A model generated the notes under the pieces. That model did no database searches and was not told the origin of the DNA. It was given only the letters and a program-made list of their open reading frames with translations. From IMG/VR virus record IMGVR_UViG_3300020045_009460, positions 1 to 63,736 of that record: DNA of 63,736 bases. One strand, 5' to 3'. A program made the translations under genes and the position numbers. The stretch's first letter is position 1. Each line of letters opens with the position of its first letter. Shown here piece by piece: positions 4,181 to 49,087 of the stretch. The DNA comes from a virus. Taxonomy: Duplodnaviria; Caudoviricetes.

Positions 4181-4182
4181 CT

Positions 4183-31888: not shown

Positions 31889-31899
31889 GGAGCTATAAA

Positions 31900-32817: not shown

Positions 32818-32818
32818 C

Positions 32819-33715
32819 ATGTCAATCACATTAGATGGTTCCGCAGGTATCACCTCGCCTAAAACCGCGAGTGTGTCCATAAATTTCGGTGTAGTGGGCG
32901 ACAGAAGAAATTTAGAGGCGTGGTCTAACGACGGCGCTACTATAAACATGTCATATATGTCTCATCTGCTATCGGATGCTTCGAATAATTTATGCTCATT
33001 GAGAGGCACTTCCGCTTTATCAATGAGCATAAATTCCACTGGTCTCGGGGGGATGGTAGGCGGCGCGGTGGGTAATGGTGGGTATATCGCGGTGTATCAC
33101 GTGTATCGCCCATCTGGAGCCAGCGAAGGCCTTGTAGGTATCAACTGCGACAACTTATCTAACTTAGCCTCCAGAGTTCCAGCAAGTGAGCTATTCCCCG
33201 GAGCTGTCGACCTTCCTTCTACTTACATGTATAGTGCTCTGGTGGGTGTGTATTACGTTGCAAAAGACACCAAATATCTAAGGAACTTTTACCAGACGGA
33301 CAGAAGAATTTCTACCGTAATGCTCCCTTTGGGCTATGCGATATCCGCTTCTGTCCCATTTGCAGGGTCTATTATAACCCTCCCTTACACTTATTTGGAT
33401 GGCACATCCTACCCCACCCCTGAGTTAGGTCAGTGCGTCCCTCCTCCGGCTAATGCCAGAGTTATTCATGTGTCATCGGCTGCTTGGGTTCTGTCTGGCG
33501 GTGGCCCATATACCTTGATAATAACTCCTATTAGTGGAGCTATGAAGGGAGGGTTTGTAACCTCTTGGTTCTCCCCCACAGGGGGCAATGGCAACCAAAC
33601 CATGAACCGGATGTTGACATCATATAGAACAACCGGATTGAGCGTAAACGTAATCCCTCTGACCGCCACTATACCTGTTAAGCACGGGTTCGGCGTGACA
33701 GAATATGAAATCTAA
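32819..33715 (+). CDS. Tail fibre/receptor-binding protein A
   Basis: Follows adaptor; paralogous to 34987-35955. Confidence 0.65.
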   Translation: MSITLDGSAGITSPKTASVSINFGVVGDRRNLEAWSNDGATINMSYMSHLLSDASNNLCSLRGTSALSMSINSTGLGGMVGGAVGNGGYIAVYHVYRPSGASEGLVGINCDNLSNLASRVPASELFPGAVDLPSTYMYSALVGVYYVAKDTKYLRNFYQTDRRISTVMLPLGYAISASVPFAGSIITLPYTYLDGTSYPTPELGQCVPPPANARVIHVSSAAWVLSGGGPYTLIITPISGAMKGGFVTSWFSPTGGNGNQTMNRMLTSYRTTGLSVNVIPLTATIPVKHGFGVTEYEI

Positions 33716-33723
33716 GGGCTGAT

Positions 33724-34545
33724 ATGACTATCTCTTTGAAAGCAAACACCGATGGCAGCGGCACTATTTACATCAACGGCAGCCCCAAAATGACTTTGGA
33801 TGCAGCCGGTAATGTCGTGGGAACCTTAACCCCCGCTCAAGGTGATAATACTTTAAAACTACCTACAACAGCCTATGTGAGACAAAACTCACGCAACTAC
33901 GCCGGTGCTATACAGATCAATGCTGATACTGTTTTAACATCAGCCCATCTGTCTAGCGCATTACTGGTGAACACGGGAGGGGCTACCCTAAGGCTCCCGG
34001 CCATCTCCAGCTTGTTTGATGGTGCTACTTTCATCATAAGAAACATGGCAACCACTCCTATAGGGGTGATCACATCAGGCGAGACCATTTTTATATCCAA
34101 CGCAAATACGTTAGCATCCATTTTTGTTGATGTAGGTGAAACAGCTATATTTATAGCTGCCAGTGGTAATTGGCTCCTTGATGGTTCTACAGTGGCTAAA
34201 AGGTTACCTAATTTTGCTAAAAACGTCGCAGGCCCTTCAACATGGTGGAGCAAGTTGCCTAATGGACTTATCCAGCAATGGGCTACAGTGGGCTTTGTTC
34301 GTCAAGCTGGCCTTTTTTTCTTCGCTGATGTGACTTACCCGGTTCCTTTCCCTAATGCGTGTCTTTCGGTAGTTCCTGCGTATATCGGGCAACCTCCTGT
34401 GGCTGGTACATCGACCCCCCTATTGGTTGATTCTCTGTCATCCAGAACAGGTTGCTCTATTTGTACATCTATTAACACATGGTTCACCTCTGCTAGGGGT
34501 GATATGAGTACTCAGCCGATTTCCGTTTCTATTGTAGGGTGGTAA
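33724..34545 (+). CDS. Tail fibre/receptor-binding protein B (gp53-like C-terminus)
   Basis: PTTAYV; KLPNGLIQQW...PVPFPNACL...VGW. Confidence 0.8.
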   Translation: MTISLKANTDGSGTIYINGSPKMTLDAAGNVVGTLTPAQGDNTLKLPTTAYVRQNSRNYAGAIQINADTVLTSAHLSSALLVNTGGATLRLPAISSLFDGATFIIRNMATTPIGVITSGETIFISNANTLASIFVDVGETAIFIAASGNWLLDGSTVAKRLPNFAKNVAGPSTWWSKLPNGLIQQWATVGFVRQAGLFFFADVTYPVPFPNACLSVVPAYIGQPPVAGTSTPLLVDSLSSRTGCSICTSINTWFTSARGDMSTQPISVSIVGW

Positions 34546-34546
34546 C

Positions 34547-34987
34547 ATGGACGAACAGTTGTGGTATTTCGATGCATCTACATTAGCGTTTTATCCTTAT
34601 TCTATGAAGCCTGATTACGTGGCAGCCGGGACATGGCCCGCCAGCGGTGTTGATGTTAATAACTACACACGGGAAGACTTCATGCCCCAGAACGCACCGA
34701 ACGGCATGACTCTTGGTGCTGATGGGCGTGGGTTCCCTACTTGGGTTCCTATAGCTGTGGTCCCTCCTACTGACGCCGAGAAATATGCAGAAGCTGAAGA
34801 TCTGCGTAAGCGTTTGATAGCAGAGACAGAATCTATATCCCCTATTGTGTGGGCATCCATGGGGGATCCGGGAGAGCTTTCAAAGTTGCAAACGGCGTGG
34901 ATCGAATACAGAACCGCGCTAAAAAATCTCCCAAGCCTTCCGGGATATCCTAATGTTACATGGCCAGTTAAGCCGGAGATTTCATAA
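34547..34987 (+). CDS. Tail fibre assembly chaperone (Tfa)
   Basis: FYP...WP...G.PTW...AW..YR..L...P.V.WP.KP. Confidence 0.85.
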   Translation: MDEQLWYFDASTLAFYPYSMKPDYVAAGTWPASGVDVNNYTREDFMPQNAPNGMTLGADGRGFPTWVPIAVVPPTDAEKYAEAEDLRKRLIAETESISPIVWASMGDPGELSKLQTAWIEYRTALKNLPSLPGYPNVTWPVKPEIS

Positions 34988-35955
34988 TGAGCCAAGTGAA
35001 TGCCGTTAATCATCAGGTAGGGATGAACAGCACTCCCGAAAACAATTTCGTCCTGAGCGCATCTAGCAATGACGGGACTATGAGTATAAAAAGAGGGGGG
35101 GTAGCGCAGCAGCAGGTATTAGGGTTCGACGCCAATGGCTACACTATCGCTATAACTCCCCCTAAAGGTGATGCCACTACTAAATCCGCTACCACTGCTT
35201 TTGTTAAAAATGCGATGGTAGCGTCAGGGATTATAGGGGCTTCGTTGAATGCGTATATGTTCAATACATCGGCATCATTATCTGCAACATGGTCAGCTGA
35301 TATGTTGGTAGTGGCTGAGTCGCTTTCTGGTCAAACATATTCTCTGTCATCACTATCATTGTCGATCAATCTAGGCACTGTGGGTGCTGGGGGTATGGAC
35401 ACCGGATCAATACCCGCCAATGGGTATGTTGCCATCTATGTGATATATAATCCCACCTCTAAAACAGCCGCTTTGATGGGCGTCAACACTACTGCAATAG
35501 TAGCTCCTGAGGTGTATGGCGGGTCTAGCATGCCTACGGGCTACACCGCGTCAGCGCTGGTCGGTATTAGACTTACTTCAGGCAGCCTTATGACGGTAGG
35601 TGCACAGATAGGGAGGCATGTAGGGATATTAACTAGTCAGGTTTTCTCTGCCACCTCTGTAGTGCCATCAACCCCCACTTCTTTGTCTTTAAGTGCTTGT
35701 GTTCCTCTTAATGCTAAAAAAGTGGATCTTTTCCAACGTTTTGTATCTACAACTGCCGAATTGCAACAATTGGCAATAACCAGCACTGCCAACCCCATTG
35801 GTCTTGTTGGCTCTTTGTTCAACGCATCTGCGGCTGGCCAACAATTTGGGTCAACGGATATTCTCGACCTTGTGTACCCCCAAACGCTGTATTATTACCA
35901 AACAGCGGCAATATCCACCACACGGCAACTATATGTTACCGGCTACACATTTTAG
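34987..35955 (+). CDS. Tail fibre/receptor-binding protein C
   Basis: ATTAFV; INLGTVGAGGMDTG..PANGYVAIY.IYNP; MP.GYTASALV. Confidence 0.75.
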   Translation: MSQVNAVNHQVGMNSTPENNFVLSASSNDGTMSIKRGGVAQQQVLGFDANGYTIAITPPKGDATTKSATTAFVKNAMVASGIIGASLNAYMFNTSASLSATWSADMLVVAESLSGQTYSLSSLSLSINLGTVGAGGMDTGSIPANGYVAIYVIYNPTSKTAALMGVNTTAIVAPEVYGGSSMPTGYTASALVGIRLTSGSLMTVGAQIGRHVGILTSQVFSATSVVPSTPTSLSLSACVPLNAKKVDLFQRFVSTTAELQQLAITSTANPIGLVGSLFNASAAGQQFGSTDILDLVYPQTLYYYQTAAISTTRQLYVTGYTF

Positions 35956-36185: not shown

Positions 36186-36497
36186 ATGTTCGAGAAACAC
36201 ATCGCGGACCTGATGCAAGCATTGGTAGCCGGTATTGGCGGCGTGATTGCCGCACTGATGCGGAAAGAGACACATGGATTGTCTGAAACTATCATTGCTG
36301 GTGCTGGTGCGATGTTTTTAGGCTTTATTGTAGCTAAAATATGTCGTATCTCAGGCCTCAATGAGGACACAGCGATTATTTTGACATCGCTGTCTGGTTG
36401 GCTGGGGGCTGAACGCACTAGCCGTTATTTGGAAAGGATGGTCACTTCTAGGCTGGGCATCCCTGATGAAGACGAAAAGAAGGATGACACAAAATGA
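36186..36497 (+). CDS. Holin
   Basis: 103 aa, 2-3 TM helices, SGWLG, charged C-terminus. Confidence 0.8.
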   Translation: MFEKHIADLMQALVAGIGGVIAALMRKETHGLSETIIAGAGAMFLGFIVAKICRISGLNEDTAIILTSLSGWLGAERTSRYLERMVTSRLGIPDEDEKKDDTK

Positions 36498-36784: not shown

Positions 36785-37306
36785 TTAATGCACGGCCATC
36801 TCCTTCAATGCCCATGATGTAAAGCTTTTGTCTACATTGAACGTTGAATTCGAATCGGTGCCGTCCGGGCATTTGATGTGAACAATAAACGCTTTTTGCC
36901 CCACCATGGCCATGACGGCACCGGTTCCCTTTTTTTCAGTAATGTTACTCATCAGAATGATAGCACCGTCTGAATACGCTTTTACCTTTTTAAGAGACTC
37001 GGACCCGTCGCCCCATGTGATATCCACATCGCACTGTTGCTCTACCGAGCTACCGTACCCCATCAAAAACACTGGCATGAAGGTTTCACCGTCAATGGCG
37101 GTTGCTCCGGGGGAAGTGACACACACCCCGGTATTGCTGCAGGTGATGCCCATCGGAACACCATCTTTCGATTTAGTCTTATTCCACGTAGCTTGATGTG
37201 GCGCAGGCTTGGTGTCAATCGTGCTGGCATGCGCCGCGCACGCCATAAGAATAAAAGCTATGGTAAATACTGCAGCCTGTGAAATGAATCCGCTAACGAT
37301 TTTCAT
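36785..37306 (-). CDS. Exported protein with signal peptide
   Basis: Sec-type N-terminus ending AHA; four spaced Cys in the mature part. Confidence 0.7.
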   Translation of the reverse strand: MKIVSGFISQAAVFTIAFILMACAAHASTIDTKPAPHQATWNKTKSKDGVPMGITCSNTGVCVTSPGATAIDGETFMPVFLMGYGSSVEQQCDVDITWGDGSESLKKVKAYSDGAIILMSNITEKKGTGAVMAMVGQKAFIVHIKCPDGTDSNSTFNVDKSFTSWALKEMAVH

Positions 37307-37315: not shown

Positions 37316-37540
37316 CTAACGTTTAGATTGAAGGCGAGCTATTTCAGCATTCACCCTGTCGGCTTTTTCCGAGTGCACAGCTTGACATGAGTCAGCTTTA
37401 CACTGCCTTAATATCCACATCTCATTGCTTAGCTGGCTGTAAGACCTTGAAAGCTGGGATATGCACTGAGAGTCTTTAGTGTCGCATGACCAAGCCAAAG
37501 GAGCGACTAACACCAAAGCCAACAACATTACTTTTTTCAT
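37316..37540 (-). CDS. Small exported Cys-rich protein
   Basis: MKKVMLLALVLVAPLAWS-C...; 4 Cys. Confidence 0.65.
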   Translation of the reverse strand: MKKVMLLALVLVAPLAWSCDTKDSQCISQLSRSYSQLSNEMWILRQCKADSCQAVHSEKADRVNAEIARLQSKR

Positions 37541-37577
37541 ACGACACCTATGTTTAAGGGACTTCCCCGTAGCACCT

Positions 37578-37606
37578 ATTATACTACAGGAAAAGCCCCT
37601 TGTCAA
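37578..37606 (-). promoter_or_regulatory. sigma70 promoter
   Basis: TTGACA-17-TATAAT (no TGn). Confidence 0.85.
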
Positions 37607-37619: not shown

Positions 37620-38534
37620 TTACAAAATATCGTCAGGGTCACGAGTTCCCGCGTAAACAGGGAATCTAGGGAGGTCTTTGCGCCCCTTAGGAAAATGTTT
37701 GAACCTGATCGTTTCATCAACCCATTTGTTTTGGTTCGCCCAAATCTCATCGCGAAGAGATTTTCCGAAACCTGAACCTACTTTAAATAGGATACCTGTT
37801 TTAATCTCTATACACCATAAAGCGCCAAGCGTGTCACCGGGGACCTTTCCTTCCGCTGCCGTAGACCGTTTTTGATACCCGTTTTCTGCGATATAAGCTT
37901 CATTGGTGTTTATCATAAGCTCTTCGAAACCAACCACCCGAGCCTCATCAAACTCAAATCTTTTTACCTTTAGGATATCCCCCTGTTTAGCAGTGCATCG
38001 GCCATATCTATAGGGGCTTAATATCTTACGTATCATAAGCCCCTCATATTTATTATCTAACTCTTCCTCTTCATATATATCGCATTCATACTGGGATGTG
38101 ATAAGGCGTTGGGGGACCAGCTTAAGGTCAGGTATGTCCCGGAAAACGGTTGCGAATTTTTCTTGGAGGGAGTCGTACCGATCTGCATATGGTTGGCCGG
38201 GCATGTCGAATAAATCAAACACATTTAGCACCCAAGGTTCGCCAGAGGGTTCTTCCTTTATGCGCCGGGTAACTTGTGTTTTGATATAAACATCTTCGGC
38301 ATTGGGTGTACCTACGGTTAATTCCCCGTCAATCCCGTGGAACGCGCTATACCCAAGCATTTTGTGTAGGTATAAATTAGGGGCGCGTTTTGCTGACCGG
38401 GTGATTGCTGTCTTTTCGCGAACAGCTATTCGGTTGCCGTCTATTTTGGCTGATGCAAACATAGGCCATTGCAGTGGATATTTGTCCACCACATCTTCAA
38501 TGCGTTCATTGGGAGCTAGCATTAAACGGTTCAT
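37620..38534 (-). CDS. ATP-dependent DNA ligase
   Basis: KIDG, IDGEL, VFD, EGLMIR, LKVK, VGSGF, PRFP. Confidence 0.93.
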   Translation of the reverse strand: MNRLMLAPNERIEDVVDKYPLQWPMFASAKIDGNRIAVREKTAITRSAKRAPNLYLHKMLGYSAFHGIDGELTVGTPNAEDVYIKTQVTRRIKEEPSGEPWVLNVFDLFDMPGQPYADRYDSLQEKFATVFRDIPDLKLVPQRLITSQYECDIYEEEELDNKYEGLMIRKILSPYRYGRCTAKQGDILKVKRFEFDEARVVGFEELMINTNEAYIAENGYQKRSTAAEGKVPGDTLGALWCIEIKTGILFKVGSGFGKSLRDEIWANQNKWVDETIRFKHFPKGRKDLPRFPVYAGTRDPDDIL

Positions 38535-39184
38535 TGCGGCACCTCTCTCGTTTTCAATGGCTGCGGAGCTTTGAAATTATATGTTGCTGATGACCCTACG
38601 CACGCGTACGACACGCTGAACATATGCGTGTTTCGTATGGCTACCATGGCATCTTTACCGGTTTTTGTTTTTGGGACGTAAAGAGATAGATTCCCGTTGT
38701 ATATATAGGAATCAACAGGTGCAAGGGCCACGCCCGCGTATGAAACCGAGGCTTTGCACGTCTGGTTTTCATTTTCGTCGATTCCGCTCAAGTATATTAT
38801 GCTGCTGTCAGGAGCTACTATAAGACATACCATAACATCTTCAGTGGAACATATGGTCCACATATTCACAGACACACGGGTCCAGTCACGAACCAAATTC
38901 TTAGCGCTGACATCTTTGCGGTTAGCTTCTTCTATCCTCATAGCGGCTTTTACAGAAGCCCCCTTATCGATAGCCATGGCGGCCTCTGTCACGTCATATG
39001 CGCTGCCAAGGGATGCCTGCTCATCGGGAGATAAGAAATGTCTAACCATAAAAGAGTCAAATGGAGACCTTTCTGTTGACTCCACAGGCAGGTTCAATGC
39101 ATACCAGCGAAATAACGGTTCTGCTCCCGTTGACACCAATACCGATGCCGCAAATACTACAAGGGCAGTGATTGTTTTGTTCAT
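38531..39184 (-). CDS. Exported protein, C-domain paralogous to 36785-37306
   Basis: Signal peptide; shared Cys spacing and G...M.....F.V...C. Confidence 0.6.
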   Translation of the reverse strand: MNKTITALVVFAASVLVSTGAEPLFRWYALNLPVESTERSPFDSFMVRHFLSPDEQASLGSAYDVTEAAMAIDKGASVKAAMRIEEANRKDVSAKNLVRDWTRVSVNMWTICSTEDVMVCLIVAPDSSIIYLSGIDENENQTCKASVSYAGVALAPVDSYIYNGNLSLYVPKTKTGKDAMVAIRNTHMFSVSYACVGSSATYNFKAPQPLKTREVPQ

Positions 39185-39226: not shown

Positions 39227-39649
39227 TCAATATGAGACGCGAGCTGGTTGAGACATATCTGCGGTATAGGTATCGCTGATATGCCGCCCGCTTTCCCCAG
39301 CTTTCTCAGTTTGTCCCTCATGCTTGTGGGCTGTGATGGTGGCGGGTCTGATAGCGGATTCTTCTCTATGCGTCTCGTCCTCTTCAAGAAGATCGGCCAC
39401 GAGAATGGCGTAACCGCCGATGTCACGCCATGAGTCAACATTGTGAGCATTGCCATTAGCGATACGTGCGATTTTATGGGAAATCATGTTTATTGATTCT
39501 TCCATGTACTCCGGGATCTGGGTAGGAGTGTTTACGCGCATATGCCCAAGGATTATATCGCGTAATTTTTTGCTCAATTCAGCTTGGTCGCGATAACTCC
39601 CGTACTGCTTGCCGCGTTCCTCAAGGATTTTGGTCATTTTATCGGACAT
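39227..39649 (-). CDS. DUF6378-like protein
   Basis: ILEERGKQYG...MISHKIARIANG....DSWRDIGGYA. Confidence 0.75.
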   Translation of the reverse strand: MSDKMTKILEERGKQYGSYRDQAELSKKLRDIILGHMRVNTPTQIPEYMEESINMISHKIARIANGNAHNVDSWRDIGGYAILVADLLEEDETHREESAIRPATITAHKHEGQTEKAGESGRHISDTYTADMSQPARVSY

Positions 39650-40062
39650 ACAATCTCTCCATGTTTTGATATTAATATAGCTGAATCTACGGCATAATCT
39701 ATTGTAGATACTTTGAAATGCAAGCGCCCGGCCAGATGCGCGATATTGAAAATAGCATCCGGCTCTGAGACTGATTTCGCCGGGAGTACGTAGTAACAGT
39801 TATCGTCACCAATTATCATCACCGGATTTCCACCCGCTTTGATGCGGTCTTTAAACCAGCGGTACTGAGTGGGCCGGATTTCAATGCCCCCGCCCTTTTT
39901 AACCACTTTAAGCTCTATCTGGGTAATGTGGCCATCGATACAACAGTCAGCGTCGGGAAATCCGGCTGATGTCATATGCGACTCTACCCAAGATAGATGT
40001 GAACGGGGATATTTCCTGCTCACAGAGTCGGCTAACTCATCCCGGAGTTCTGATTCTTTCAT
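39634..40062 (-). CDS. VRR-NUC/Holliday-junction-resolvase-like nuclease
   Basis: KESEL...GFPD...IELK...IRPTQ..W...GG; ATGA-coupled to datZ. Confidence 0.8.
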   Translation of the reverse strand: MKESELRDELADSVSRKYPRSHLSWVESHMTSAGFPDADCCIDGHITQIELKVVKKGGGIEIRPTQYRWFKDRIKAGGNPVMIIGDDNCYYVLPAKSVSEPDAIFNIAHLAGRLHFKVSTIDYAVDSAILISKHGEIVCPIK

Positions 40063-40637
40063 AGTACCGGCCATTTCAAATCGTAATTCTGACACCATGA
40101 ATGAGTAATGTGATAGACATCATCACGAGCTTGTGAAACAGCATTGAAAGCAATAGGTCCTTCTGCGCATATGGAGGGCAGTTTAACCATAAAATCATCA
40201 AAAGCGTGGATGATATATGACTGAACGCTCGATGCTCTGATATCCGCTTGGTCAACATTAACTTCGCACCAATATATCGACTCTATCAAATCAGCCGCTT
40301 TGATGATCCATTTATATGTTGACGGAGTGTTTTCGAAGCCGTCTCTTTCAGCCAAAGCAGCCACTTCAATGCCTACATTTCGCAGAGCTATTTTGACATG
40401 GGACGGAATATCCCCTGTTGTCATTTCATCCATATCATGACACGCACCTAAGTAAAAGGCATGATCCGGGTTGATGCCGATAGCACCGTGGTCCACAGCG
40501 TTTTCGGCAATGTGCTTAGCCAAGAATGCCACCCGGAATGAATGTTGGGCCACATCTTGGGGCGATTTGGTGGTGACCATGTGAAAACGCGTCACTTCGT
40601 TTAGGTGCCACGCTGCTCTTAATTTTCTGATGTCCAT
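40059..40637 (-). CDS. datZ: HD-domain dATP triphosphohydrolase
   Basis: VTRFH...VAQHSF...HDMDE..TGDIPS.VK...IKAADLIE; in the purZ operon. Confidence 0.85.
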   Translation of the reverse strand: MDIRKLRAAWHLNEVTRFHMVTTKSPQDVAQHSFRVAFLAKHIAENAVDHGAIGINPDHAFYLGACHDMDEMTTGDIPSHVKIALRNVGIEVAALAERDGFENTPSTYKWIIKAADLIESIYWCEVNVDQADIRASSVQSYIIHAFDDFMVKLPSICAEGPIAFNAVSQARDDVYHITHSWCQNYDLKWPVL

Positions 40638-40639
40638 AG

Positions 40640-40954
40640 TTAAATCTCTTTGTTGTGCTGCAGACATCCACCGCTGGGGTGCCATGTCCGCTTTTTGTTT
40701 ATTTCTAATTTATCGTAGAATGCTTCAGCTGGATTGATATCGTGAAGTTTGGCTACATCAAGAACCAAAATAAGTATATCGGCTATCTCGCCTGCTACGT
40801 CTTTGGTTCCTAGCGTCACAGCCTCCATTAACTCGGCTACTTCGCCTGCCATCTTAATAACAGTGCGGCGGGAATCTCTCCCCGCCAACAATGTTTCAAT
40901 CCAAGCCGCTTGCGCTTCCACCATGTTATTAATGTCTGGCGAGCGGCTGTCCAT
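40640..40954 (-). CDS. mazZ: MazG-like/DUF550 (d)GTP diphosphohydrolase
   Basis: K..GEVAEL...GEIADILIL...KLEINKKRTW; between purZ and datZ. Confidence 0.85.
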   Translation of the reverse strand: MDSRSPDINNMVEAQAAWIETLLAGRDSRRTVIKMAGEVAELMEAVTLGTKDVAGEIADILILVLDVAKLHDINPAEAFYDKLEINKKRTWHPSGGCLQHNKEI

Positions 40955-42036
40955 TATTCGCCATCCAGAGCGTTTTCGTAGCCTTCCGAGTAGCGCTCTA
41001 AGAATTCGTCAACACTGATCACCTGATCGCGGCGAGGGCCGGTCCCGACCATAGTGATGATGTCTTTGTCGATATAGCCCAGATCGCCCATCATCTCGTT
41101 AACCTGTTCGATAACATCAACTGCTTGATGAGGGTTGTAATTGACAAAATTGAGCATCACTTCATCGATGCCGTTGGCGATAATTGCTTCGTGGATCTGC
41201 GCATAGCTAAACGAGAATACGCGGCGAACACGTTTGGTCACAGTGGTGAGTTCTGGAGCCACCCCGAGCTGTTCCCAAGTGAGTTCTTCCTGATCCGGGT
41301 AAATATCGCCGCTAAAGCCATCGGCAGTATTGCCGACGCGGATCGGATGGAGACGGGCCACACCGATGGCTTTGCGAAGCCAACCGGCTGGGATGGCGCA
41401 GTCGGCCATGTAGCGAGTAACAGTACAGTCGCGAGATGTGCAGTACGGGTAGAAGCCTGAATTGTGCCCCAGCGAGTAACCCTGAGCGCCCTCAACCAAA
41501 ATGCTCTCAGATTCGAGGAGATGCTGCAAATAGTCGGCATGGCTCACAACATATTTATCAAGGCCGTACTCGGCCAGCAGCGGCATCTGATCGCGAGCAA
41601 TAGCACCCACTTCGCGGCGTATTTTTGACACGACCGCTTCACCTGAACCCTGCATAGTAGAAGAGATGCGGGATAATGTTTGCTGTTCTTTGTCCTTCAT
41701 CTCCTGTGTGACGATCATGCAGGCTTCATGAATAACAAAAATCTTTCCTTCAATAAGGTCCGCCACACCTTTTAATTCTTCCGCCAGACGTGCGGGGGAG
41801 AATGCGCTTCCCGGACCCATCATGATGCGTTTGGACACCATTACCGCGTTAGGCATGGCTTTGTGCATCCATACGCGCCCTTCCGGAGTGACAGTGGTGT
41901 GGCCCGCGTTGGGAAGATTGGCGTTAATCACAGTATCGTATTTGTTAGCTACTGCAAGATAGTCACACAGCAACCCTTTACCAGTAGAACCGAACTGCAA
42001 GTCTACTACCACATCTACTTTACGATTGTTTTTCAT
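40954..42036 (-). CDS. purZ: N6-succino-2-amino-2'-deoxyadenylate synthase
   Basis: PurA fold (NAGHT, EGAQG, YPYCTSR, TTVT.R.RR) with GSTGKG in place of GDEGKG and NFVN in place of TKLD. Confidence 0.95.
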   Translation of the reverse strand: MKNNRKVDVVVDLQFGSTGKGLLCDYLAVANKYDTVINANLPNAGHTTVTPEGRVWMHKAMPNAVMVSKRIMMGPGSAFSPARLAEELKGVADLIEGKIFVIHEACMIVTQEMKDKEQQTLSRISSTMQGSGEAVVSKIRREVGAIARDQMPLLAEYGLDKYVVSHADYLQHLLESESILVEGAQGYSLGHNSGFYPYCTSRDCTVTRYMADCAIPAGWLRKAIGVARLHPIRVGNTADGFSGDIYPDQEELTWEQLGVAPELTTVTKRVRRVFSFSYAQIHEAIIANGIDEVMLNFVNYNPHQAVDVIEQVNEMMGDLGYIDKDIITMVGTGPRRDQVISVDEFLERYSEGYENALDGE

Positions 42037-42112
42037 TACTTTTCTCCGTATAGGCCTCTGCGGCCCGGATTGTGGGAAGTCTAATTAGACCTCCCGTTTC
42101 AACTACGACGTT

Positions 42113-42141
42113 ATTGTATCACGTCTAGGTCATGCTGTCAA
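42113..42141 (-). promoter_or_regulatory. sigma70 promoter of purZ-mazZ-datZ
   Basis: TTGACA-17-TACAAT with TGn. Confidence 0.85.
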
Positions 42142-42167
42142 GTATTCTATCGTACCAAGAATTAAAC

Positions 42168-42980
42168 TTAAAGCTGAACTTTCGGCCTGTTGCTGATGAT
42201 AAGTTCCCCGTAAGAGCCTTGGTTCGATGTGCGCTTGATGGTGGACTTAGTCTCCACCCGTTCAATAGTATACCCTTCATACATCTCGCGCACTTCGGGG
42301 ATATCAGAATTAGTAAGAATGACCCGGCATCCCAACACATCAAGCCTTTTGAACTCGTCACATAGCTTTATGTGATCATAAGTAGTAAAGCCGCGTGACG
42401 TATAATCAACGTGGCCGTTGGCAGTGAAAGGCATATAGGGAGGGTCCATAAACACTACATCCCCCGGCACAGCTAAAGCCGTAGTAAGCTCGTAGGATTG
42501 AGTATAGATCCGGGAATGTCGTATACACCGCAGCACCTTTTGTGCGCTATCTAAAACATGACCATTAATTATTGGCGATACTTCACTGCGTCGGTGGTCA
42601 TAAGGAACGTTAAAACCGCCTTTTTTGTTGACACGCCACAGCCCATTAACGCACAATTTATTTAAGTATATAAATCTGGATGCGACATTAACATTATATG
42701 TCGGCGACAGTGAACGGACCGTAGCGTAATCCCACGGGTTGTTGTCCCATGAATTCACCCTTTCTGCCAGCTCAGACCCCATCGCATGTATTACTCTATA
42801 CGCCTCCATCAAATCTGGATTAGCATCACCGATGATTGCTGTGCTAGGCTCTAGGTGGAAAAATAAGGCCCCCGCTCCGAAAAATGGCTCAATATATGTT
42901 CCGTACTCTGAGGGCATGTGCTCCATCAATTTAGGAATCATACGTCGTTTGCCGCCAGCCCACCTGAAAATTGGTAACAT
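42168..42980 (-). CDS. dam: Dam-family N6-adenine DNA methyltransferase
   Basis: RWAGGK, YIEPFFGAGA, NGLWRVNKKGGFNVPY, FMDPPY, LTNSD, ELIISN. Confidence 0.92.
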   Translation of the reverse strand: MLPIFRWAGGKRRMIPKLMEHMPSEYGTYIEPFFGAGALFFHLEPSTAIIGDANPDLMEAYRVIHAMGSELAERVNSWDNNPWDYATVRSLSPTYNVNVASRFIYLNKLCVNGLWRVNKKGGFNVPYDHRRSEVSPIINGHVLDSAQKVLRCIRHSRIYTQSYELTTALAVPGDVVFMDPPYMPFTANGHVDYTSRGFTTYDHIKLCDEFKRLDVLGCRVILTNSDIPEVREMYEGYTIERVETKSTIKRTSNQGSYGELIISNRPKVQL

Positions 42981-42988
42981 AATGTCCC

Positions 42989-44854
42989 CTAATAAAGATA
43001 TTGGCCTTTGGCCGTAGATGCTTCGAAATATGTTTTCCCGGTGCCGTTTAGTTCCAACATCATAGGAACCCGCATCCAAGGAAATGAATCCTGAAAAGAA
43101 TTGATCACATCTAAACACACTTCGGCCACGTCTTTTTCAAGTGGAATAGAGAATTCAAACGAGTCATGCACATTTAAAAGCAAAAAAGAATCGTGACGGG
43201 CTAACGTAGCCTCCAAGACAACTAGAGCCGTTTTGTTGACGTCCGCTGCTGTTCCTTGAATTATCAGGCCTGATGCCGCATACGACTTATGCCCACGCGG
43301 GAATCGCATCCTCCGGCCAGAATGGGTTCTTACCCATCCTCGTTGCTCGGCACATCTTTTGGCACGCTCGGCCAAATCTTTAACACCTTTCACCTTTTGA
43401 TGGTATATGGCTATGGCATCTTTCGCTTCTTTGCCCGCTTTTTTATAAGTGATCAGTTCGCCACGGGATGTAAAAGATTCCCACTTAAACGGTAGGCCCA
43501 GTTTCTCAGCTATTGCTCCATCCCCGGAATTAAATATCATTGACAAATTCAGCTGTTTGGCATTGACCTCCCCGGAATATGTCGCGTTTCGCTTAATGCC
43601 CATTAGGTCGGCGGTGAATTGATGGAAGTCAAGTTCAGGGTTTTCCGCATATGCACTAATAACTATTTCATTGTTAGCTAGGTGGGCGAACACCCGGACA
43701 TCGCATGACATGATATCTGTACTGCCCCAACGGTGCCCTACTTCGGGCAAAAAGCATGATTTAACTATTTTCGCTACTCGCTTGTTGCGTGATGGAATCT
43801 GTTGCAGTGCGGGTTCTTGGTACGACAATCGCCCGGTGCCAGTCCCTCCGTCCTCCCCCTTGCATTGGTTTATGGATGGGTACACACGGCCATCCACCGC
43901 ATGGCCTATTACGTGTCCTTTTAGGAATGTATCACGCGTTTTGATATTAGAGCGGATATCTACTATCAATTGCGCTTTTGGGTCATTTACCATTTCACGT
44001 AGAATAGAAGATGGAATTGATGGCCCCCCTGTTTTTTTCGCTGTTTCGATTTGGTATCCGTTGTTGGCCACCCAAACATTGCCCTCTTTTCGAGGCTCGA
44101 ACACTTTTTTTATTTGGGGTGCGCTATTCACGTTTATCTCAAATCCGACCATTTCATTTATCTTTTTCTGGTCTTCTGTGATAATAGTATCCAGCTCCAA
44201 AATAGCTGCGTTAGCTGCTACAAGGTCAACCCTTACACCCCGGCGAGTCATGCGCTGCAACGTAGGGAATATGCTCATTTCGAAGTCGACGACCTCGTGC
44301 AAATCATCTTCCTTTATTTTGGCCACCTGCCAATCATACAGCCGTAAAGTAAGAGAGGTATCCTGCTTAGCATAAGGCCCCACTAACTCGGGGGGCGCTT
44401 TATGCAAGTTTGGCATTTGAGCAGACCGGGTAGCTTTCCCCCCGAAAATAGCCGCCAATTTTTCGTAAATATCATCCACTTTGTTATCTTTCAAATATTT
44501 TTTAGATAGAGCATCTAATGAATACTCCATCTCATGCTCATTTATTAGGCACGCCTGTATTTGGGTGCATCGTACTTGATCCAAAGGGATTTCTAGGCCC
44601 ATACCGTAGCCCATTTTACAGTCAAAGTGGGCATTGTGCATAGCGATGACGCCTTTGTATGACTTCATCTGTTTATTAAACCAGCGCTTTATCTCCGGCT
44701 GGCGTCGCACATCCCAGTAATAGTCATTCCCATCGGGGGTGGACACCGACACGCCGAACACTTTATCGCGCGGATAATATAATCCAGTGGCTTCTGTATC
44801 GAACGCAATCTTGTCAAATGATGATAATTCGGGAAATACTTCAGGTGCGTACAT
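42989..44854 (-). CDS. dpoZ: Family A DNA polymerase, DpoZ type
   Basis: Exonuclease DTE/HNAHFD/YAKQD; TGRLS; motif B NAKQLNLSMIFNSG; motif C HDS; next to purZ. Confidence 0.88.
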   Translation of the reverse strand: MYAPEVFPELSSFDKIAFDTEATGLYYPRDKVFGVSVSTPDGNDYYWDVRRQPEIKRWFNKQMKSYKGVIAMHNAHFDCKMGYGMGLEIPLDQVRCTQIQACLINEHEMEYSLDALSKKYLKDNKVDDIYEKLAAIFGGKATRSAQMPNLHKAPPELVGPYAKQDTSLTLRLYDWQVAKIKEDDLHEVVDFEMSIFPTLQRMTRRGVRVDLVAANAAILELDTIITEDQKKINEMVGFEINVNSAPQIKKVFEPRKEGNVWVANNGYQIETAKKTGGPSIPSSILREMVNDPKAQLIVDIRSNIKTRDTFLKGHVIGHAVDGRVYPSINQCKGEDGGTGTGRLSYQEPALQQIPSRNKRVAKIVKSCFLPEVGHRWGSTDIMSCDVRVFAHLANNEIVISAYAENPELDFHQFTADLMGIKRNATYSGEVNAKQLNLSMIFNSGDGAIAEKLGLPFKWESFTSRGELITYKKAGKEAKDAIAIYHQKVKGVKDLAERAKRCAEQRGWVRTHSGRRMRFPRGHKSYAASGLIIQGTAADVNKTALVVLEATLARHDSFLLLNVHDSFEFSIPLEKDVAEVCLDVINSFQDSFPWMRVPMMLELNGTGKTYFEASTAKGQYLY

Positions 44855-44863
44855 AGCGGCCCC

Positions 44864-45112
44864 TTAGAATGGTTGGTCATCAGGGCCGTTTGATGTTGGG
44901 ATGTGCGACGGTTGGCGCTGCTGTGTTTTGGCGGTTACCTTCAAAGATAGGAATGGTTCACCTGTCCGACTAGTTTTCTTCCAGCCGGACACAAAAAATT
45001 CTTTCCCTTCCACGTTGACGCTTCCGGTGTAGTCAGGGCTTGTTGGAGTGCGTTTTTCTTTAGCGCGGAACAGTGCGCCTGAATTTGTAGGGTCGTACGA
45101 TTTATTTTCCAT
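44864..45112 (-). CDS. Small ssDNA-binding-like protein (DUF736-like)
   Basis: NSGALF...PDYTG...SGW....G..FLSL; acidic DDQPF tail. Confidence 0.7.
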   Translation of the reverse strand: MENKSYDPTNSGALFRAKEKRTPTSPDYTGSVNVEGKEFFVSGWKKTSRTGEPFLSLKVTAKTQQRQPSHIPTSNGPDDQPF

Positions 45113-45163
45113 CGATTTTTCCTGTTTTGGGCTAGGCCCCTATACGAATATGGCGGATATTGA

Positions 45164-45187
45164 AAGGCCGGGAGATCTCCCGGCCTT
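45164..45187. terminator. Palindromic hairpin after the SSB-like gene
   Basis: Perfect 24-bp palindrome AAGGCCGGGAGA-TCTCCCGGCCTT. Confidence 0.6.
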
Positions 45188-45192
45188 GGGTT

Positions 45193-45966
45193 TTAGAATT
45201 CTTTTTCTTCTTCGGCGGAGTAGTTGGAACCCTTGGCCCCCGATTCCTCCGCGTCAGGCTCATGGTTGGTGGTTACCGCCTTGTCTTTCAAGAACTCGTA
45301 CAAAGATTCTGCTTCTTTATACGTGGCCTGATTGACAAACCCAGCTGGACGGGCGTCATAGGTGTAATAATCGCCCTTAGCGGAACTTGCCTCCACCGTG
45401 GATACTGTATACGCCTTGGCAAAACGATCGACGCCAGACATCGTAACCAAAGAGTTCAACTTACGGCTGAATTTAATAGCCGATTTGGTACATGCGACGA
45501 TGGCTTGCTCAAGACCGCCATCTGGCTTGACGATGAACCCGATATGGGAGTGGCTTTCCATCAATTCAACGTCGTCGCCATCTTCCATCGCTTCGATCTC
45601 AGTGCGCGCACGCACTTCATCACTGAAAGGCCATGCACCTTTGAAGCCACCGCCTTTTTCACGGTCTTTGAAAGCAATCCATTCTTTGCGGAACAGAACC
45701 GGCACGAACAGGAGACCTTCATCGCCATAAAGCTCATCGGTCAAAGTGTTATACAAGCGGCCTTGCTCCGCACCGGCGATGTATTTGGGGTCATTCTTTT
45801 TCAACTGCGGAGAAATCGCCTGAATGATGCCGATGCGGGGCAACATAATGTCGTTTGAATCGACCTGCTCATTACCACGAGCGTCACCCTTTTTCAGCCA
45901 TTCTGGCATTTGGTCAGCGGCGGCCAGAAGAGCGGTGTGAGTTGCGGCGATTTGGGTTTTTGACAT
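45193..45966 (-). CDS. Putative ssDNA-binding protein
   Basis: PRI.IIQA.SPQ...GA..G...NTLT.E; acidic C-terminus ending in F. Confidence 0.65.
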   Translation of the reverse strand: MSKTQIAATHTALLAAADQMPEWLKKGDARGNEQVDSNDIMLPRIGIIQAISPQLKKNDPKYIAGAEQGRLYNTLTDELYGDEGLLFVPVLFRKEWIAFKDREKGGGFKGAWPFSDEVRARTEIEAMEDGDDVELMESHSHIGFIVKPDGGLEQAIVACTKSAIKFSRKLNSLVTMSGVDRFAKAYTVSTVEASSAKGDYYTYDARPAGFVNQATYKEAESLYEFLKDKAVTTNHEPDAEESGAKGSNYSAEEEKEF

Positions 45967-46045
45967 TTTTATTACTCTCTATATTAGTTAAGGTTTCGTT
46001 AGTTAGAGGTTTGGTTAAGGGTTCCCTCCATCCCCAGTACTGAGT

Positions 46046-46074
46046 ATTATACCACATCCGTGTGGCTCTGTCAA
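46046..46074 (-). promoter_or_regulatory. sigma70 promoter
   Basis: TTGACA-17-TATAAT; spacer CCACA-CGGA-TGTGG. Confidence 0.9.
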
Positions 46075-46080
46075 TTACCC

Positions 46081-46611
46081 TTATTTAGGCTCTTTTGACT
46101 TTTTGGTGGCAACTTTTACCAGACTTACTTTAGAGTAGGGGGTGCATTTAAACAATTCCTCGGGGGTCACCCGGCCTGATTGGATGCCCTCTTTAAGCCA
46201 CGCTTTTAAGGATGATGCGTTTACTGTCTCTTGGATCATGTCGCCGTAGTTATTATCCCGCAGCCATTTATATGCTTCCTCGCGTTTCTCGGCCGAGATG
46301 GATGCATAGACATCGCCAGATACTTGGACTCTTCCGACCCCTTCAACAGTAAACGTGCGTAATTCCATTTCAATCATTAAGTCCGGCACTTCTTTTAGCT
46401 TGAGCTGATCGAATTCAGCGTTTAATTGCTTGCGCACCAAATCAAGCGCGTCATGAATTTCGGTCAGCTGTTTAATGCGCTTAGCGAGATTGGTCAGCAG
46501 CATGATCGGTTCGCCGGTGCGGTCGGGCTTTGTTGCTTCCAAACCACGGCCCACACGTTCAATGACGGTGATGACATCTTCGGTGGTCGGCGTGCGTTTT
46601 TCTTGGTTCAT
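46081..46611 (-). CDS. Conserved replication-module protein
   Basis: P.LM...A..WLR.N..G..I..TVN..SLKAW. Confidence 0.7.
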   Translation of the reverse strand: MNQEKRTPTTEDVITVIERVGRGLEATKPDRTGEPIMLLTNLAKRIKQLTEIHDALDLVRKQLNAEFDQLKLKEVPDLMIEMELRTFTVEGVGRVQVSGDVYASISAEKREEAYKWLRDNNYGDMIQETVNASSLKAWLKEGIQSGRVTPEELFKCTPYSKVSLVKVATKKSKEPK

Positions 46612-46619
46612 GTTGTTAC

Positions 46620-47234
46620 CTATTTAGTGTTGGCGTTTCGTGTTGCGGAGGAGTTTGCTTCATCGCGATCTGGGTTATAGCGGCCCAAGATATAATCCGG
46701 GCGACGACTGTCCGGTTGAGGGCAGGCGGCAATTATGCGCCAGCCGTTATCAAGCGCCGTCTGCAATTGGTCAGTGCAACTATCTTCAAGCAGCATGGTT
46801 TCATTTAAAATCATCAGCCCAAGCCCCGGCACGTGGACGTCGCACTTAGAATTATACGAGAGTTCCGGCATTTTTTCAGCCATCTCAGCTAACCGAGATT
46901 CCAACTTAAGCACAGCCGCCCCGACACTTTCAAGTGTTGCATCTACGGTCTTGGGCCGATGGCGTGACTTTATTGTAGGTTGTATGCCGATATCAATCAA
47001 GTTTAAGAACTGATCAATACTAGCTAACGCCTCAAAAGTTTTTATTTGGTAATAGCTAGAATAGGCGACATCATCGCTGATGTCATTTTCACTGCGGTTT
47101 TCTAAAGGCGCTGTGTAGACGATACCCACTGATGTAAGAGCAGCGTGGAATTTGTGATATGCCGCTGAATATTCAGTATATTTGTGGGTGTATGACAATG
47201 GTGCTTCAATATTTATTAACAGAACATCACTCAT
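46620..47234 (-). CDS. Conserved phage protein
   Basis: EDSCTDQLQ..LD.GWRIIA.CPQPDSRRPDYILGR. Confidence 0.7.
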   Translation of the reverse strand: MSDVLLINIEAPLSYTHKYTEYSAAYHKFHAALTSVGIVYTAPLENRSENDISDDVAYSSYYQIKTFEALASIDQFLNLIDIGIQPTIKSRHRPKTVDATLESVGAAVLKLESRLAEMAEKMPELSYNSKCDVHVPGLGLMILNETMLLEDSCTDQLQTALDNGWRIIAACPQPDSRRPDYILGRYNPDRDEANSSATRNANTK

Positions 47235-47297
47235 GATTACCTCATATTAATGTTTAAGTGGGGCTTTGATTCGGGGTCCCCGCTTCCCGATATTAAT

Positions 47298-47326
47298 ATT
47301 CTAACACATCCTTGTGGTCATGTCAA
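47298..47326 (-). promoter_or_regulatory. sigma70 promoter
   Basis: TTGACA-17-TAGAAT; spacer CACA-AGGA-TGTG. Confidence 0.85.
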
Positions 47327-47329
47327 GTA

Positions 47330-49027
47330 CTAGATTAGTGAGAATTTTCCTGAGTGCACAGCTTCTTCCACCCATTCCGAGATGTCTTTTTTCTGATTAG
47401 TGGCCTCCATGATAGACCGATCAGCTTTAATATCTAATGTAAGGTCGATAATGCCGATGCCTTGGGTTTTTTCAAGGTTGGTTGCACGCTCCAGACTTTG
47501 AACACGACTTTCATACTGATAATCCATGCTATAGTAAATCATTACATTAGCAGCACTAAGCTCCAGCCCCATCGACCCGCACGTAGGGTTGCCTACAAAG
47601 TATCGCACATCCTCGTTTCCTTGGAATGTTACTCGTGCGTGCGTCCGTTCATCCTCGTTTTGCTTCCCGTAGAATGTAACCGCTGATTCGGGGCCGTACT
47701 TAGCTATTAGAGCATCGCGGATAGCTTCTATTTCAGGCACAAACCGCGCCCATATAACCACTTTTCCGGGTTCCTCCGCCAGTATCTCCATCAATTCGTC
47801 TAGCTTAGGATTAGTTTTAAGTGGGATGGGGATACTAGTCCCGTCCTCTTGGAGAGAGGGGAAAAAACCGCCCGCTATTTGCTGTGCTCGCAACAATAAG
47901 GTCATCGCTGTTTGAACCACTGTTTCGTGGTCGCCCATGGATGTTTCCAGAGTCTTTTGTAGCTCTTTGACCATCTTAATTTGGTCGGGGGTAGGGTCGA
48001 TAGTGCGCTGTGTGAAAGTTTTGTCAGGGAGGTCTACTACATCTGATGTTTTTACGAGATGGGCGTAAGTGGTGATCTTGGCCATCAATTCGTCTACGTT
48101 TTTTACGCCGATTTCCTTTTTCCTCTCAAACCCGCCCATAAGCACGTAACGGTTGCGAAACGCATAAAAGGAATCAAACCCGAGAGTATGGGTTCCTAGA
48201 AATCGGAATTGCGCGAATAGGTCCGAAGGGGATCTTGTCACCTCGGAACCTGTTAGAATTACCCGGAACCCAGCAACCGCACCTAAGTCCCAAAGGGACT
48301 CGGTCCTTAAGCTTTTGTGGTTCTTAATACGGGTCGACTCATCAACACCGATCATCGTGCGAGCGCCGTAGATGCTCACAAATTCGGTAGCCAGTTCTTG
48401 GCCTCCGACAGATGCTTGCCCCTCAACAGACACCACAAGCACTTGCAGTTTTGGCTCCTTCTTGGATGTTTTGTCCTTAATACCGGCCATCCACGCAGCG
48501 ATTTTCTTCTTTTTAGAATCTTTCTTTATGTTTAGCACGTGCAGGTCATATGGGCAAACGGCACGCTTGCCGAATTCTGATTCCCACACCGATTTGATGG
48601 AATTGGGGCATACTATTAATAGAGAATTGATTTGTCCTGCGATAAAACGGCCACATGCCAGCCTGATAGTGGTTGATGTCTTGCGAAGCCGTGGGCGGTG
48701 CAGAATGGCGTACCCTTCGTGATTCCACGCGCGTTTAATAGCGGTTATTTGGTGGTCCAGAAGGCCATTGAATATTATTGCGGGAGGCTCCCCCTCAATC
48801 GTCACCGGAGTGGCCGCGTCGATAATCTCCTGCGCTAATGCTTTGGCCGCATCATCCATGTCATCAGAGAAGCCTGCTATTAACGCCATGGCGTTATCGT
48901 ATGTGGGGGCTACTGCCCATAGTGCGAATTTCTTTTTAAATTCTCTTTTTGGCAGTTCCATTATGCGGTGATTTTCCATGAAACTACATTTAACAGCAAA
49001 CTTACCATTTAACACATTGACTTTCAT
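47330..49027 (-). CDS. SNF2-family helicase-like protein with degenerate ATPase motifs
   Basis: LIVCP, DEST, LTGS, KVVIWARF, GLELSAA; Walker A reads RLRKT. Confidence 0.85.
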   Translation of the reverse strand: MKVNVLNGKFAVKCSFMENHRIMELPKREFKKKFALWAVAPTYDNAMALIAGFSDDMDDAAKALAQEIIDAATPVTIEGEPPAIIFNGLLDHQITAIKRAWNHEGYAILHRPRLRKTSTTIRLACGRFIAGQINSLLIVCPNSIKSVWESEFGKRAVCPYDLHVLNIKKDSKKKKIAAWMAGIKDKTSKKEPKLQVLVVSVEGQASVGGQELATEFVSIYGARTMIGVDESTRIKNHKSLRTESLWDLGAVAGFRVILTGSEVTRSPSDLFAQFRFLGTHTLGFDSFYAFRNRYVLMGGFERKKEIGVKNVDELMAKITTYAHLVKTSDVVDLPDKTFTQRTIDPTPDQIKMVKELQKTLETSMGDHETVVQTAMTLLLRAQQIAGGFFPSLQEDGTSIPIPLKTNPKLDELMEILAEEPGKVVIWARFVPEIEAIRDALIAKYGPESAVTFYGKQNEDERTHARVTFQGNEDVRYFVGNPTCGSMGLELSAANVMIYYSMDYQYESRVQSLERATNLEKTQGIGIIDLTLDIKADRSIMEATNQKKDISEWVEEAVHSGKFSLI

Positions 49028-49058
49028 TATTTCTCCAGATACGGTTGAGCCACTCCCT

Positions 49059-49087
49059 ATTGTAACACAAGGAGTGGCTCTTGTCAA
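49059..49087 (-). promoter_or_regulatory. sigma70 promoter with -10 in a hairpin loop
   Basis: TTGACA-17-TACAAT; 10-bp inverted repeat 49047-49056/49071-49080. Confidence 0.85.

Follow-up and report, generated by a model that had tools for sequence, protein, structure and literature searches.

A putative phiVC8-like 2-aminoadenine module in a PB1/E217-type myovirus genome, with a DpnM/Dam-like methyltransferase gene between dpoZ and purZ

Cyanophage S-2L, the founding phage of the 2-aminoadenine (Z) type, is a siphovirus that carries the triad of PurZ, MazZ-1 and DatZ and employs PrimPol rather than DpoZ (PMC8065100), and the Vibrio phage phiVC8, which belongs to the DpoZ-2/PurZ group, is a 39-kb podovirus. 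The ten Z-cluster phages in the text of PMC8342488 are all Siphoviridae or Podoviridae, and the text of PMC8599892 likewise places the Z cluster in siphoviruses and podoviruses only. Among the NCBI viruses downloaded in June 2022, Z phages were recognised as forming seven or more groups by gene sharing (PMC12884076); the main text of that paper, which leaves the group lists to its supplements, makes no mention of myovirus, contractile or Burkholderia. The present study deals with the virus record IMGVR_UViG_3300020045_009460, the whole of which (63,736 bp, with direct terminal repeats and a CheckV completeness of 100%) is referred to here as the window. At 39227-44854 it has seven minus-strand genes in a run, coding for DpoZ, a D12 methyltransferase, PurZ, MazZ, DatZ, a phrog_2165 protein and a DUF6378 protein, and at 10.5-31.2 kb, on the plus strand, it has genes for terminase, portal, capsid, sheath, tube, baseplate hub and baseplate wedge. 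With a probability of about 80%, the window is the complete genome of an uncultivated lytic-type Z-myovirus, its DNA most likely carrying Z for A, in which a phiVC8-like module of about 10 kb, acquired once, is set in a PB1/E217-type chassis. What the genes encode is read from homology, and from this we infer the activities of the enzymes, the Z content of the DNA and the single acquisition.

The same combination exists in two deposited isolates with Burkholderia hosts, Bm1 (PP183292, 67.5 kb) and BCSR129 (MW460247, 66.1 kb). Both encode DpoZ, PurZ, a MazZ homologue, DatZ, the small phrog_2165 protein and the DUF6378 protein in the order of the window, both also have sheath, tube and baseplate genes, and both fall in its PurZ and DpoZ clade. 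However, their PurZ and DpoZ are just 58-60% identical to those of the window and their structural proteins 32-63%, they have no D12 methyltransferase and no match to the ligase of the window, their guanine plus cytosine (GC) content is 57-58% against 47%, and the tail fibre of the window points to Enterobacterales instead of Burkholderia. Bm1 has been shown by electron microscopy to possess a contractile tail (PMC12003559), and the main text of that report has zero mentions of PurZ, aminoadenine, diaminopurine or adenylosuccinate. Thus a Z module in a myovirus, which the initial annotation had taken to be a new combination, is not categorically new, because two isolates in GenBank carry it and one of them has been described by electron microscopy; what stands of the novelty is that a full-text literature search found no open paper reporting a Z-type myovirus. 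BCSR129 may already be among the seven groups of PMC12884076. The wider metagenomic PurZ clade on 52-69 kb contigs and the conserved DpnM/Dam-like methyltransferase inside the Z cluster, both taken up below, appear new.

All the Z elements that had been named in the initial annotation were recovered where it had placed them, on the minus strand. PurZ, the 2-aminoadenylosuccinate synthetase (40954-42036, minus strand; phrog_1211, 8.9e-79), is closer to PurZ than to PurA. Among solved chains it matches phiVC8 PurZ (6fm1) at 1.8e-92 and S-2L PurZ (7odx) at 3.7e-60, as against 1e-11 to 6e-21 for PurA chains, E. coli PurA (1ade) being at 1.2e-11. Its identity is 50% to phiVC8 PurZ and 38% to that of S-2L. 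The predicted signatures GSTGKG and NFVN are both in the translation. The catalytic Asp13 of PurA is replaced by S17 (in DLQFGSTGKG), a column that is invariant in 6/6 aligned PurZ sequences, and Ser at this place was reported in 147/147 phage PurZ sequences (PMC12884076). Out of the 12 PurZ-discriminating residues listed in the text of bioRxiv 10.1101/2025.10.22.683976, 11 are kept, the exception being P144, which is V in the window. The kept markers include F12, S14 and T262 in phiVC8 numbering, which form the pocket for dGMP's 2-amino group, and F295 and Y298, which contact the adenine of ATP (same preprint); they correspond to F15, S17, T264, F297 and Y300 of the window.

The gene between purZ and datZ (40640-40954, minus strand; MazG, 3.5e-4) codes for a MazG-like (d)GTP pyrophosphohydrolase of the MazZ-1, S-2L type, and its best solved match is S-2L MazZ (7ody, 8.2e-9). 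The acidic metal ligands and the equivalents of R83 and of I56/D60 are identical on alignment, in a numbering that assumes a 6-residue tag offset by our own count; I56 and D60 as guanine contacts, and R83, were defined for MazZ-1 in PMC8342488. This gene had been labelled MazG/DUF550. The MazG part of the label stands; DUF550 (PF04447) has no match in the ten proteins scanned at E <= 0.01, nor in three rescanned at E <= 10. At E <= 1e-4, tblastn finds no match to the window MazZ in phiVC8, whose own gene is accordingly of the MazZ-2 type. Directly after mazZ lies the gene for a DatZ-like HD-domain dATP triphosphohydrolase (40059-40637, minus strand, with the start set at Met17 of the open reading frame), an assignment borne out by matches to phrog_7076 'dATP triphosphohydrolase' (4.8e-23), to YfbR-like proteins (1.1e-12) and, as the best solved structure, to S-2L DatZ (6zpa, 8.8e-5). 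Its metal ligands H48, H83, D84, E87, D92 and D132 are invariant in 5/5 sequences.

DpoZ (42989-44854, minus strand) belongs to DNA polymerase family A and has a 3'-5' exonuclease domain (Pfam DNA_pol_A 4.1e-45, exonuclease 3.2e-13), and its translation contains the expected PolA motifs KQLNLSMIFNSG and HDS. Its best solved match is phiVC8 DpoZ (7pbk, E 2.8e-196), compared with 4e-38 for Klenow. Identity is 59% to Bm1, 41-52% to other purZ-positive phages (51% to phiVC8) and 29% for the first phage outside the purZ-positive ones among the matches listed. The gene lies about 950 bp upstream of purZ with the methyltransferase gene alone between them, and it is the sole DNA polymerase gene found in the genome. 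For each of the four Z enzymes, the solved Z-phage counterparts give much stronger matches than the housekeeping relatives do. In the proposed route, MazZ would convert dGTP to dGMP, which PurZ would join to aspartate at the expense of ATP; the succinylated precursor so formed would be taken on to dZTP by PurB and kinases of the host, DatZ would degrade dATP, and DpoZ would copy the genome with Z opposite T. No PurB (Lyase_1) gene was found in the window; the later steps towards dZTP must therefore be supplied by the host, as in other Z phages (PMC8342488).

The Z genes are part of a larger unit, a phiVC8-like replication module of about 10 kb (39227-49087) which, judged from homology and gene order, is wider than the region first flagged, because the gene order recurs across purZ loci. 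All its genes are on the minus strand. Beyond DpoZ it comprises genes for a single-stranded DNA-binding (SSB)-like protein (44864-45112), a Pam3 gp34-like protein (45193-45966), a Pam3 gp33-like protein (46081-46611), a conserved hypothetical protein (46620-47234) and an SNF2 helicase (47330-49087). At its other end are the small conserved protein (39634-40098; phrog_2165, annotated 'DNA helicase'), whose real start is probably an internal Met near 40062, and the DUF6378 protein (39227-39649; PF19905, 4e-6), with whose gene the conserved Z module ends. The order in the window, which is SNF2, two small conserved genes, gp34-like, SSB-like, DpoZ, PurZ, MazZ, DatZ, small protein and DUF6378, agrees with that of phiVC8 and of most IMG/VR purZ loci; phiVC8 differs in having a primase gene between dpoZ and purZ and no methyltransferase. 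Among 83 purZ loci compared, of which 78 are IMG/VR loci and four GenBank records contribute 5, DpoZ was present in 74, DatZ in 67, the gp34-like gene in 60, the small protein in 59 (directly after datZ), MazZ in 52, SNF2 in 51 and DUF6378 in 34 (downstream of datZ), nearly always in the same order.

The split in ancestry is visible gene by gene in tblastn searches of the comparison genomes at E <= 1e-4. For the replication genes, identity is 50-60% with Bm1 and BCSR129 and 31-51% with phiVC8 and SH-Ab 15497; in the non-Z myoviruses FEC19 and Carpasina it is 24-36% where the genes are present at all; for most genes of 44864-49087 too, identity to phiVC8/SH-Ab exceeds that to FEC19/Carpasina. 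The structural genes have no match in phiVC8 or SH-Ab 15497. Upstream of the module on the minus strand, the segment 51895-56504, with a Dda-like helicase gene (51895-53202) and a gene for a primase-polymerase with a DUF5906 helicase-like domain (53913-56504), is 50-53% identical to Bm1.

The virion genes, all on the plus strand, are those of a contractile-tailed phage of PB1/E217 type, as far as homology tells, contraction itself having been seen in the relative Bm1 only. They begin with the large terminase subunit (10508-11956; phrog_3717/phrog_2, 7e-40; Terminase_3, 4.4e-26) and a portal protein with a C-terminal inorganic pyrophosphatase domain (12016-14295; Phage_portal_3, 5.5e-75; InPase, 2.2e-45). 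The major capsid protein of the PB1-like supergroup (17506-18645; phrog_264, 5.4e-71) is 60-63% identical to those of Luteibacter phage Pluto, Serratia phage MyoSmar, Xanthomonas phage Carpasina, Bm1 and the Wifcevirus group (FEC19). The tail sheath (21180-22799; phrog_205 'tail sheath', 2.3e-33; DUF3383, 3.9e-77) is about 41% identical to the sheaths of Carpasina and of PB1-like phages (Pbunavirus). The next product, of the E217 gp32 family (22811-23260; PF22764, 1.5e-53), is in our reading the tail tube because of its position beside the sheath, its Pfam and PHROGs family label being 'tail fiber protein'. The baseplate hub of the E217 gp41 family (28381-29262; PF22759, 7.6e-58) and the baseplate wedge (29916-31166; phrog_6, with phrog_196 also in the baseplate region) enclose two small genes within 28381-31166. 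Sheath, tube and baseplate genes were thus found by PHROG and Pfam in the genome of the Z cluster, as had been claimed.

It should be noted that this chassis is not of the Bcep781 type that the initial annotation had assigned. Bcep781 (Burkholderia, Naesvirus) is likewise a myovirus, its head genes are similarly ordered and a family A polymerase is annotated in it, but its genome is 48 kb, its capsid and portal are only 23% and 26% identical to those of the window, as against a capsid identity of 60-61% to PB1-like genera in the same tblastn comparison, and it has no tblastn match for sheath, PurZ, DpoZ or DatZ. The tail proteins belong to E217 (Pbunavirus) Pfam families instead, and a Naesvirus-type chassis is not supported. 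The phages that share the chassis are the Pseudomonas phages PB1, E217 and JG024 (Pbunavirus), FEC19 (Wifcevirus), Myosmarvirus, Carpasinavirus, Pluto and WTB, which have genomes of 61-69 kb, tube and hub in the E217 gp32 and gp41 families and the fusion of portal and pyrophosphatase; FEC19 and Carpasina also have the ligase. In Pluto the annotation of the portal homologue reads 'inorganic pyrophosphatase', and in MyoSmar it reads 'phosphatase family protein'. The whole genomes of Gekk3-15, Pluto, MyoSmar, WTB and JG024 contain neither a PurA-family gene nor a polymerase of the window type (0/5), and tblastn found no PurA-family gene and no such family A polymerase in FEC19 and Carpasina, which carry a different polymerase of 940-965 aa. 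That a phiVC8-like Z replication module had been combined with a myovirus genome, as originally proposed, is supported by this split tblastn pattern, by the gene order and by the PurZ and DpoZ trees.

In these trees (82 rows for PurZ and 70 for DpoZ; branch support by the Shimodaira-Hasegawa-like approximate likelihood ratio test, SH-aLRT) the window, a 31-kb IMG/VR sibling contig, Bm1 and BCSR129 form one clade, with a support of 99 in PurZ and 97 in DpoZ. The clade is nested in both trees among phiVC8-like contigs of 36-41 kb, apart from the SH-Ab 15497 clade, and its DpoZ lies inside the phiVC8-type (DpoZ-2) group with a support of 100 against the SH-Ab group. A tree of the structural proteins (capsid, sheath, tube, protease and portal; 10 taxa, 1929 columns) left out the IMG/VR sibling, for which sheath and tube sequences only were available, and Bcep781, which is too distant; it contains a well-supported set of four, made up of the window, Bm1, BCSR129 and Aeromonas phage Gekk3-15. 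As the same combination is found in Bm1 and BCSR129, the simplest reading, and the most likely one, is that the Z module was acquired once, by the clade's ancestor.

The combination also recurs in metagenomic data, on two independent contigs. The 31-kb IMG/VR sibling carries the Z cluster and the sheath together, and the full gene order is found on a 63,527-bp metagenome contig, the sole close relative returned by a scan of metagenome contigs. Between the window and the 63,527-bp sibling synonymous sites are saturated, and the nonsynonymous divergence (dN) is 0.03 for PurZ and 0.06 for DpoZ. Among 49 IMG/VR purZ records of at least 22 kb, chosen from 79 loci, a sheath of the window type was present in 1/49 (the 31-kb sibling) and in 0/26 of the records that are at least 90% complete. 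PF04984 sheaths were found in 0/49, a null result that covers other sheath types only, because the window sheath is DUF3383. In a larger protein collection, PurZ clusters grade from 96% identity to about 53%, and in a 51-row PurZ tree a 27-row clade (SH-aLRT 99) contains the window, Bm1 and BCSR129. Those of its members that have long contigs are all of 52-69 kb, as against 36-41 kb for the phiVC8 type. From this size and from four verified genomes, the whole clade would consist of myoviruses. With about 20 further metagenomic PurZ clusters on 52-69 kb contigs beside the window, Bm1 and BCSR129, the phiVC8-type module could also be running in a contractile-tailed clade of considerable size that has gone unrecognised. 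Its cultured members are under consideration for anti-Burkholderia therapy, and Z-DNA would alter their behaviour in restriction, sequencing and the polymerase chain reaction. A different, larger kind of PurZ-bearing phage may be represented by one 119,931-bp IMG/VR contig (67% complete), whose PurZ is 45% identical to that of the window; it has no DpoZ, DatZ or MazZ match within 10 kb of purZ, and a D12 methyltransferase gene about 54 kb off.

The gene between dpoZ and purZ (42168-42980, minus strand), which is absent from the initial annotation, codes for a D12-class N6-adenine DNA methyltransferase (PF02086, 3.7e-42). It has the D12 fold with FxGxG and DPPY motifs, which places it in the Dam/DpnM family, and among solved structures it matches DpnM (2dpm) at 6.8e-44, E. 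coli Dam at 1.6e-23 and T4 Dam at 3e-6, all of them GATC enzymes. No palindromic tetramer is more depleted in the window than GATC (172 observed, 289 expected). In a genome expected to lack adenine, the putative targets of such an enzyme could be the N6 of Z, host DNA, or the adenine left by incomplete substitution.

A quite plausible reading, though somewhat short of an even chance, is that the methyltransferase acts not on phage DNA but on GATC sites of the host, for example so as to disturb its replication, mismatch repair or gene control, or that it is a selfish insertion unrelated to Z. It would fit with this that the gene is absent from the Z phages Bm1, BCSR129, phiVC8 and SH-Ab 15497 and also from FEC19 (0/5), and that just 3/49 IMG/VR purZ records have it, namely the sibling, a 120-kb contig on which it is remote from purZ, and a record whose match is weak and split. 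The best phage homologues reach no more than 39% identity, and none of the 30 matches listed is from a purZ-positive phage. The gene also evolves faster than its surroundings, being 78% identical in the sibling as against 92-96% for its neighbours. On the other hand, the 63,527-bp sibling likewise carries it between dpoZ and purZ, with a dN of 0.16 and saturated synonymous divergence, DPPY is invariant in 10/10 homologues, and the gene is under purifying selection. Furthermore, six methyltransferase clusters agree with a PurZ cluster of the clade in data source and in the exact size of the only or longest contig (63,527; 65,675; 6,553; 7,369; 5,940 and 64,875 bp), three of them on contigs of just 5.9-7.4 kb. 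If matching sizes denote the same contig, purZ and the methyltransferase would be linked in at least seven genomes, the window included, over PurZ identities from 96% to 47%, and a selfish insertion is not expected to hold a linkage across such divergence. The DpnM/Dam-like gene is apparently fixed between dpoZ and purZ in the sub-lineage of the window.

A bolder and rather improbable role for the embedded enzyme is methylation of the N6 of 2-aminoadenine itself at GZTC, in which case the virion DNA would carry N6-methyl-2,6-diaminopurine. We know of no natural occurrence of this base, though no search aimed at it was made. Such methylation would provide for those restriction enzymes by which Z-DNA is still cut at sites of the GATC type. 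The main text of PMC12944874, which gives its per-enzyme results for dZ-DNA cleavage in figures, does not mention MboI, DpnII or Sau3AI. The presence of the enzyme in a Z cluster raises the question whether N6-adenine methyltransferases can use 2-aminoadenine as a substrate, on which a limited literature check found nothing.

Several observations weigh against a fully Z-substituted genome with a module acquired once, and some of them speak for the view, to which we give only a minor share of the probability, that the cluster is present while the genome is partly (mixed A/Z) or not substituted and the Dam-like enzyme acts on the remaining A in GATC. An intact methyltransferase of the GATC family inside the cluster is easiest to explain if some adenine persists in the DNA. 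At the specificity pair W20/I22 of S-2L DatZ the window has F/M, so its selectivity for dATP is not assured, and a three-gene Z cluster in E. coli replaced just 12.1% of plasmid and 3.9% of chromosomal adenine (PMC8342488). But the pair is W/M in Bm1, W/L in phiVC8 and W/I in SH-Ab, so that M at position 22 is shared with Bm1, and other residue combinations occur on dZ-enriched contigs according to the text of a preprint. The four Z enzymes are also intact and conserved, with a low dN in PurZ and DpoZ at saturated synonymous divergence, and no DNA polymerase other than DpoZ was found in the genome. For the window phage the Z reading comes from homology, and no chemical support was found, as far as searched, for Bm1 and BCSR129 either. 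Palindromes provide no help: those made of GC only have an observed/expected ratio of 0.16 in the window, compared with 0.91 for palindromes containing A/T, and four Z phages show a bias in the same direction. Since the non-Z phage FEC19 is alike (0.37 against 0.85), the avoidance is not specific to Z, and it was rejected as a signature of Z-DNA. As to the single acquisition, support in the structural tree for a branch that sets the window, Bm1 and BCSR129 apart is weak (78/74), and related myoviruses could conceivably have exchanged the module in separate events.

That the contig is a metagenomic mis-assembly of a phiVC8-like podovirus with a PB1-like myovirus can be dismissed: its two halves do differ in their nearest relatives, but the 121-bp terminal repeats (1-121 and 63616-63736, left and right copies) are exact, CheckV completeness is full, GC is even throughout (0.45-0.51), the architecture is identical in the cultured phages Bm1 and BCSR129, and the same junctions recur on two further contigs at 92-96% protein identity. 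Neither megablast of 39227-44854 nor blastn of the tail-fibre region against GenBank phages returned near-identical DNA.

With regard to the host, the initial annotation had suggested an enterobacterial phage as probable, and the evidence leans weakly in that direction. The tail fibre genes occupy 31831-35955 on the plus strand (phrog_26622, 4209, 188 and 11518), with a tail fibre assembly gene at 34547-34987 on the same strand. The best named homologue of the distal fibre is a Rahnella aceris prophage protein (59% identity over 75% of the query). The 120 matches listed contain 26 named homologues. Enterobacterales account for 23 of these (11 from Yersinia, 7 from E. coli, and one each from Rahnella, Shimwellia, Cronobacter, Atlantibacter and Kluyvera) and Burkholderiales for 3. 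Against phage records the fibre has matches across Burkholderia, Yersinia, Pseudomonas and Ralstonia at no more than 43% identity. Similarity to E. coli genomes is limited to one 200-bp match of 68% identity in 1/5426 genomes, which is uninformative. Thus the host may lie in Enterobacterales, perhaps in Yersiniaceae.

EcoRI and HindIII sites, which had been said to occur in the sequence, number 23 and 14. Six of the eight hexamer palindromes made of GC only are absent or nearly so, with observed/expected counts of 0/19.6 for CCCGGG, 0/10.4 for CCGCGG, 0/12.9 for GCCGGC, 0/10.9 for GGCGCC, 0/6.6 for GGGCCC and 2/14.4 for CGGCCG; CGCGCG and GCGCGC are retained, and GAGCTC and GGTACC are absent too. 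A near-identical subset of hexamers is avoided in the E. coli phage FEC19, and this may reflect restriction systems of shared hosts rather than Z-DNA.

The structure model of the DUF6378 protein has four helices (predicted local distance difference test, pLDDT, 83.5). A Foldseek search with it against the PDB returned nothing at E <= 0.001, S-2L MazZ being at rank 19 with E 5.8, and in VIA-align (wide) the best Z was 7.2, for generic helical membrane subunits. The minus-strand gene at 37620-38534 codes for an ATP-dependent DNA ligase (phrog_114, 1.2e-48), which is 31-38% identical to those of FEC19 and Carpasina, relatives of the non-Z kind. Should the DNA be Z-substituted, nicks that contain Z would have to be sealed by this enzyme.

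No tRNA genes were found in a search across the window, and no endolysin gene was identified in it. The holin gene (phrog_785; 36186-36497, plus strand) encodes a protein 46% identical to one of Bcep781 and 32-34% identical to proteins of Bm1, BCSR129 and SH-Ab 15497; it is the most similar of just ten window genes that have any match in Bcep781 at E <= 1e-4. The two arms that flank the terminal repeats (1-10000 and 56500-63736) hold about 40 small open reading frames with no match in seven comparison genomes, the sole exception being a DUF2786/DUF7168 protein at 1591-2331. Between lysis genes and replication module there are three minus-strand genes (36785-37306, 37316-37606 and 38531-39184) whose N-termini resemble signal peptides or lipoprotein signals and which belong to no PHROG or Pfam family. 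One of their products, a 217-aa protein, is 91% identical in the 63,527-bp sibling, and the three genes may be morons or spanin-like genes.

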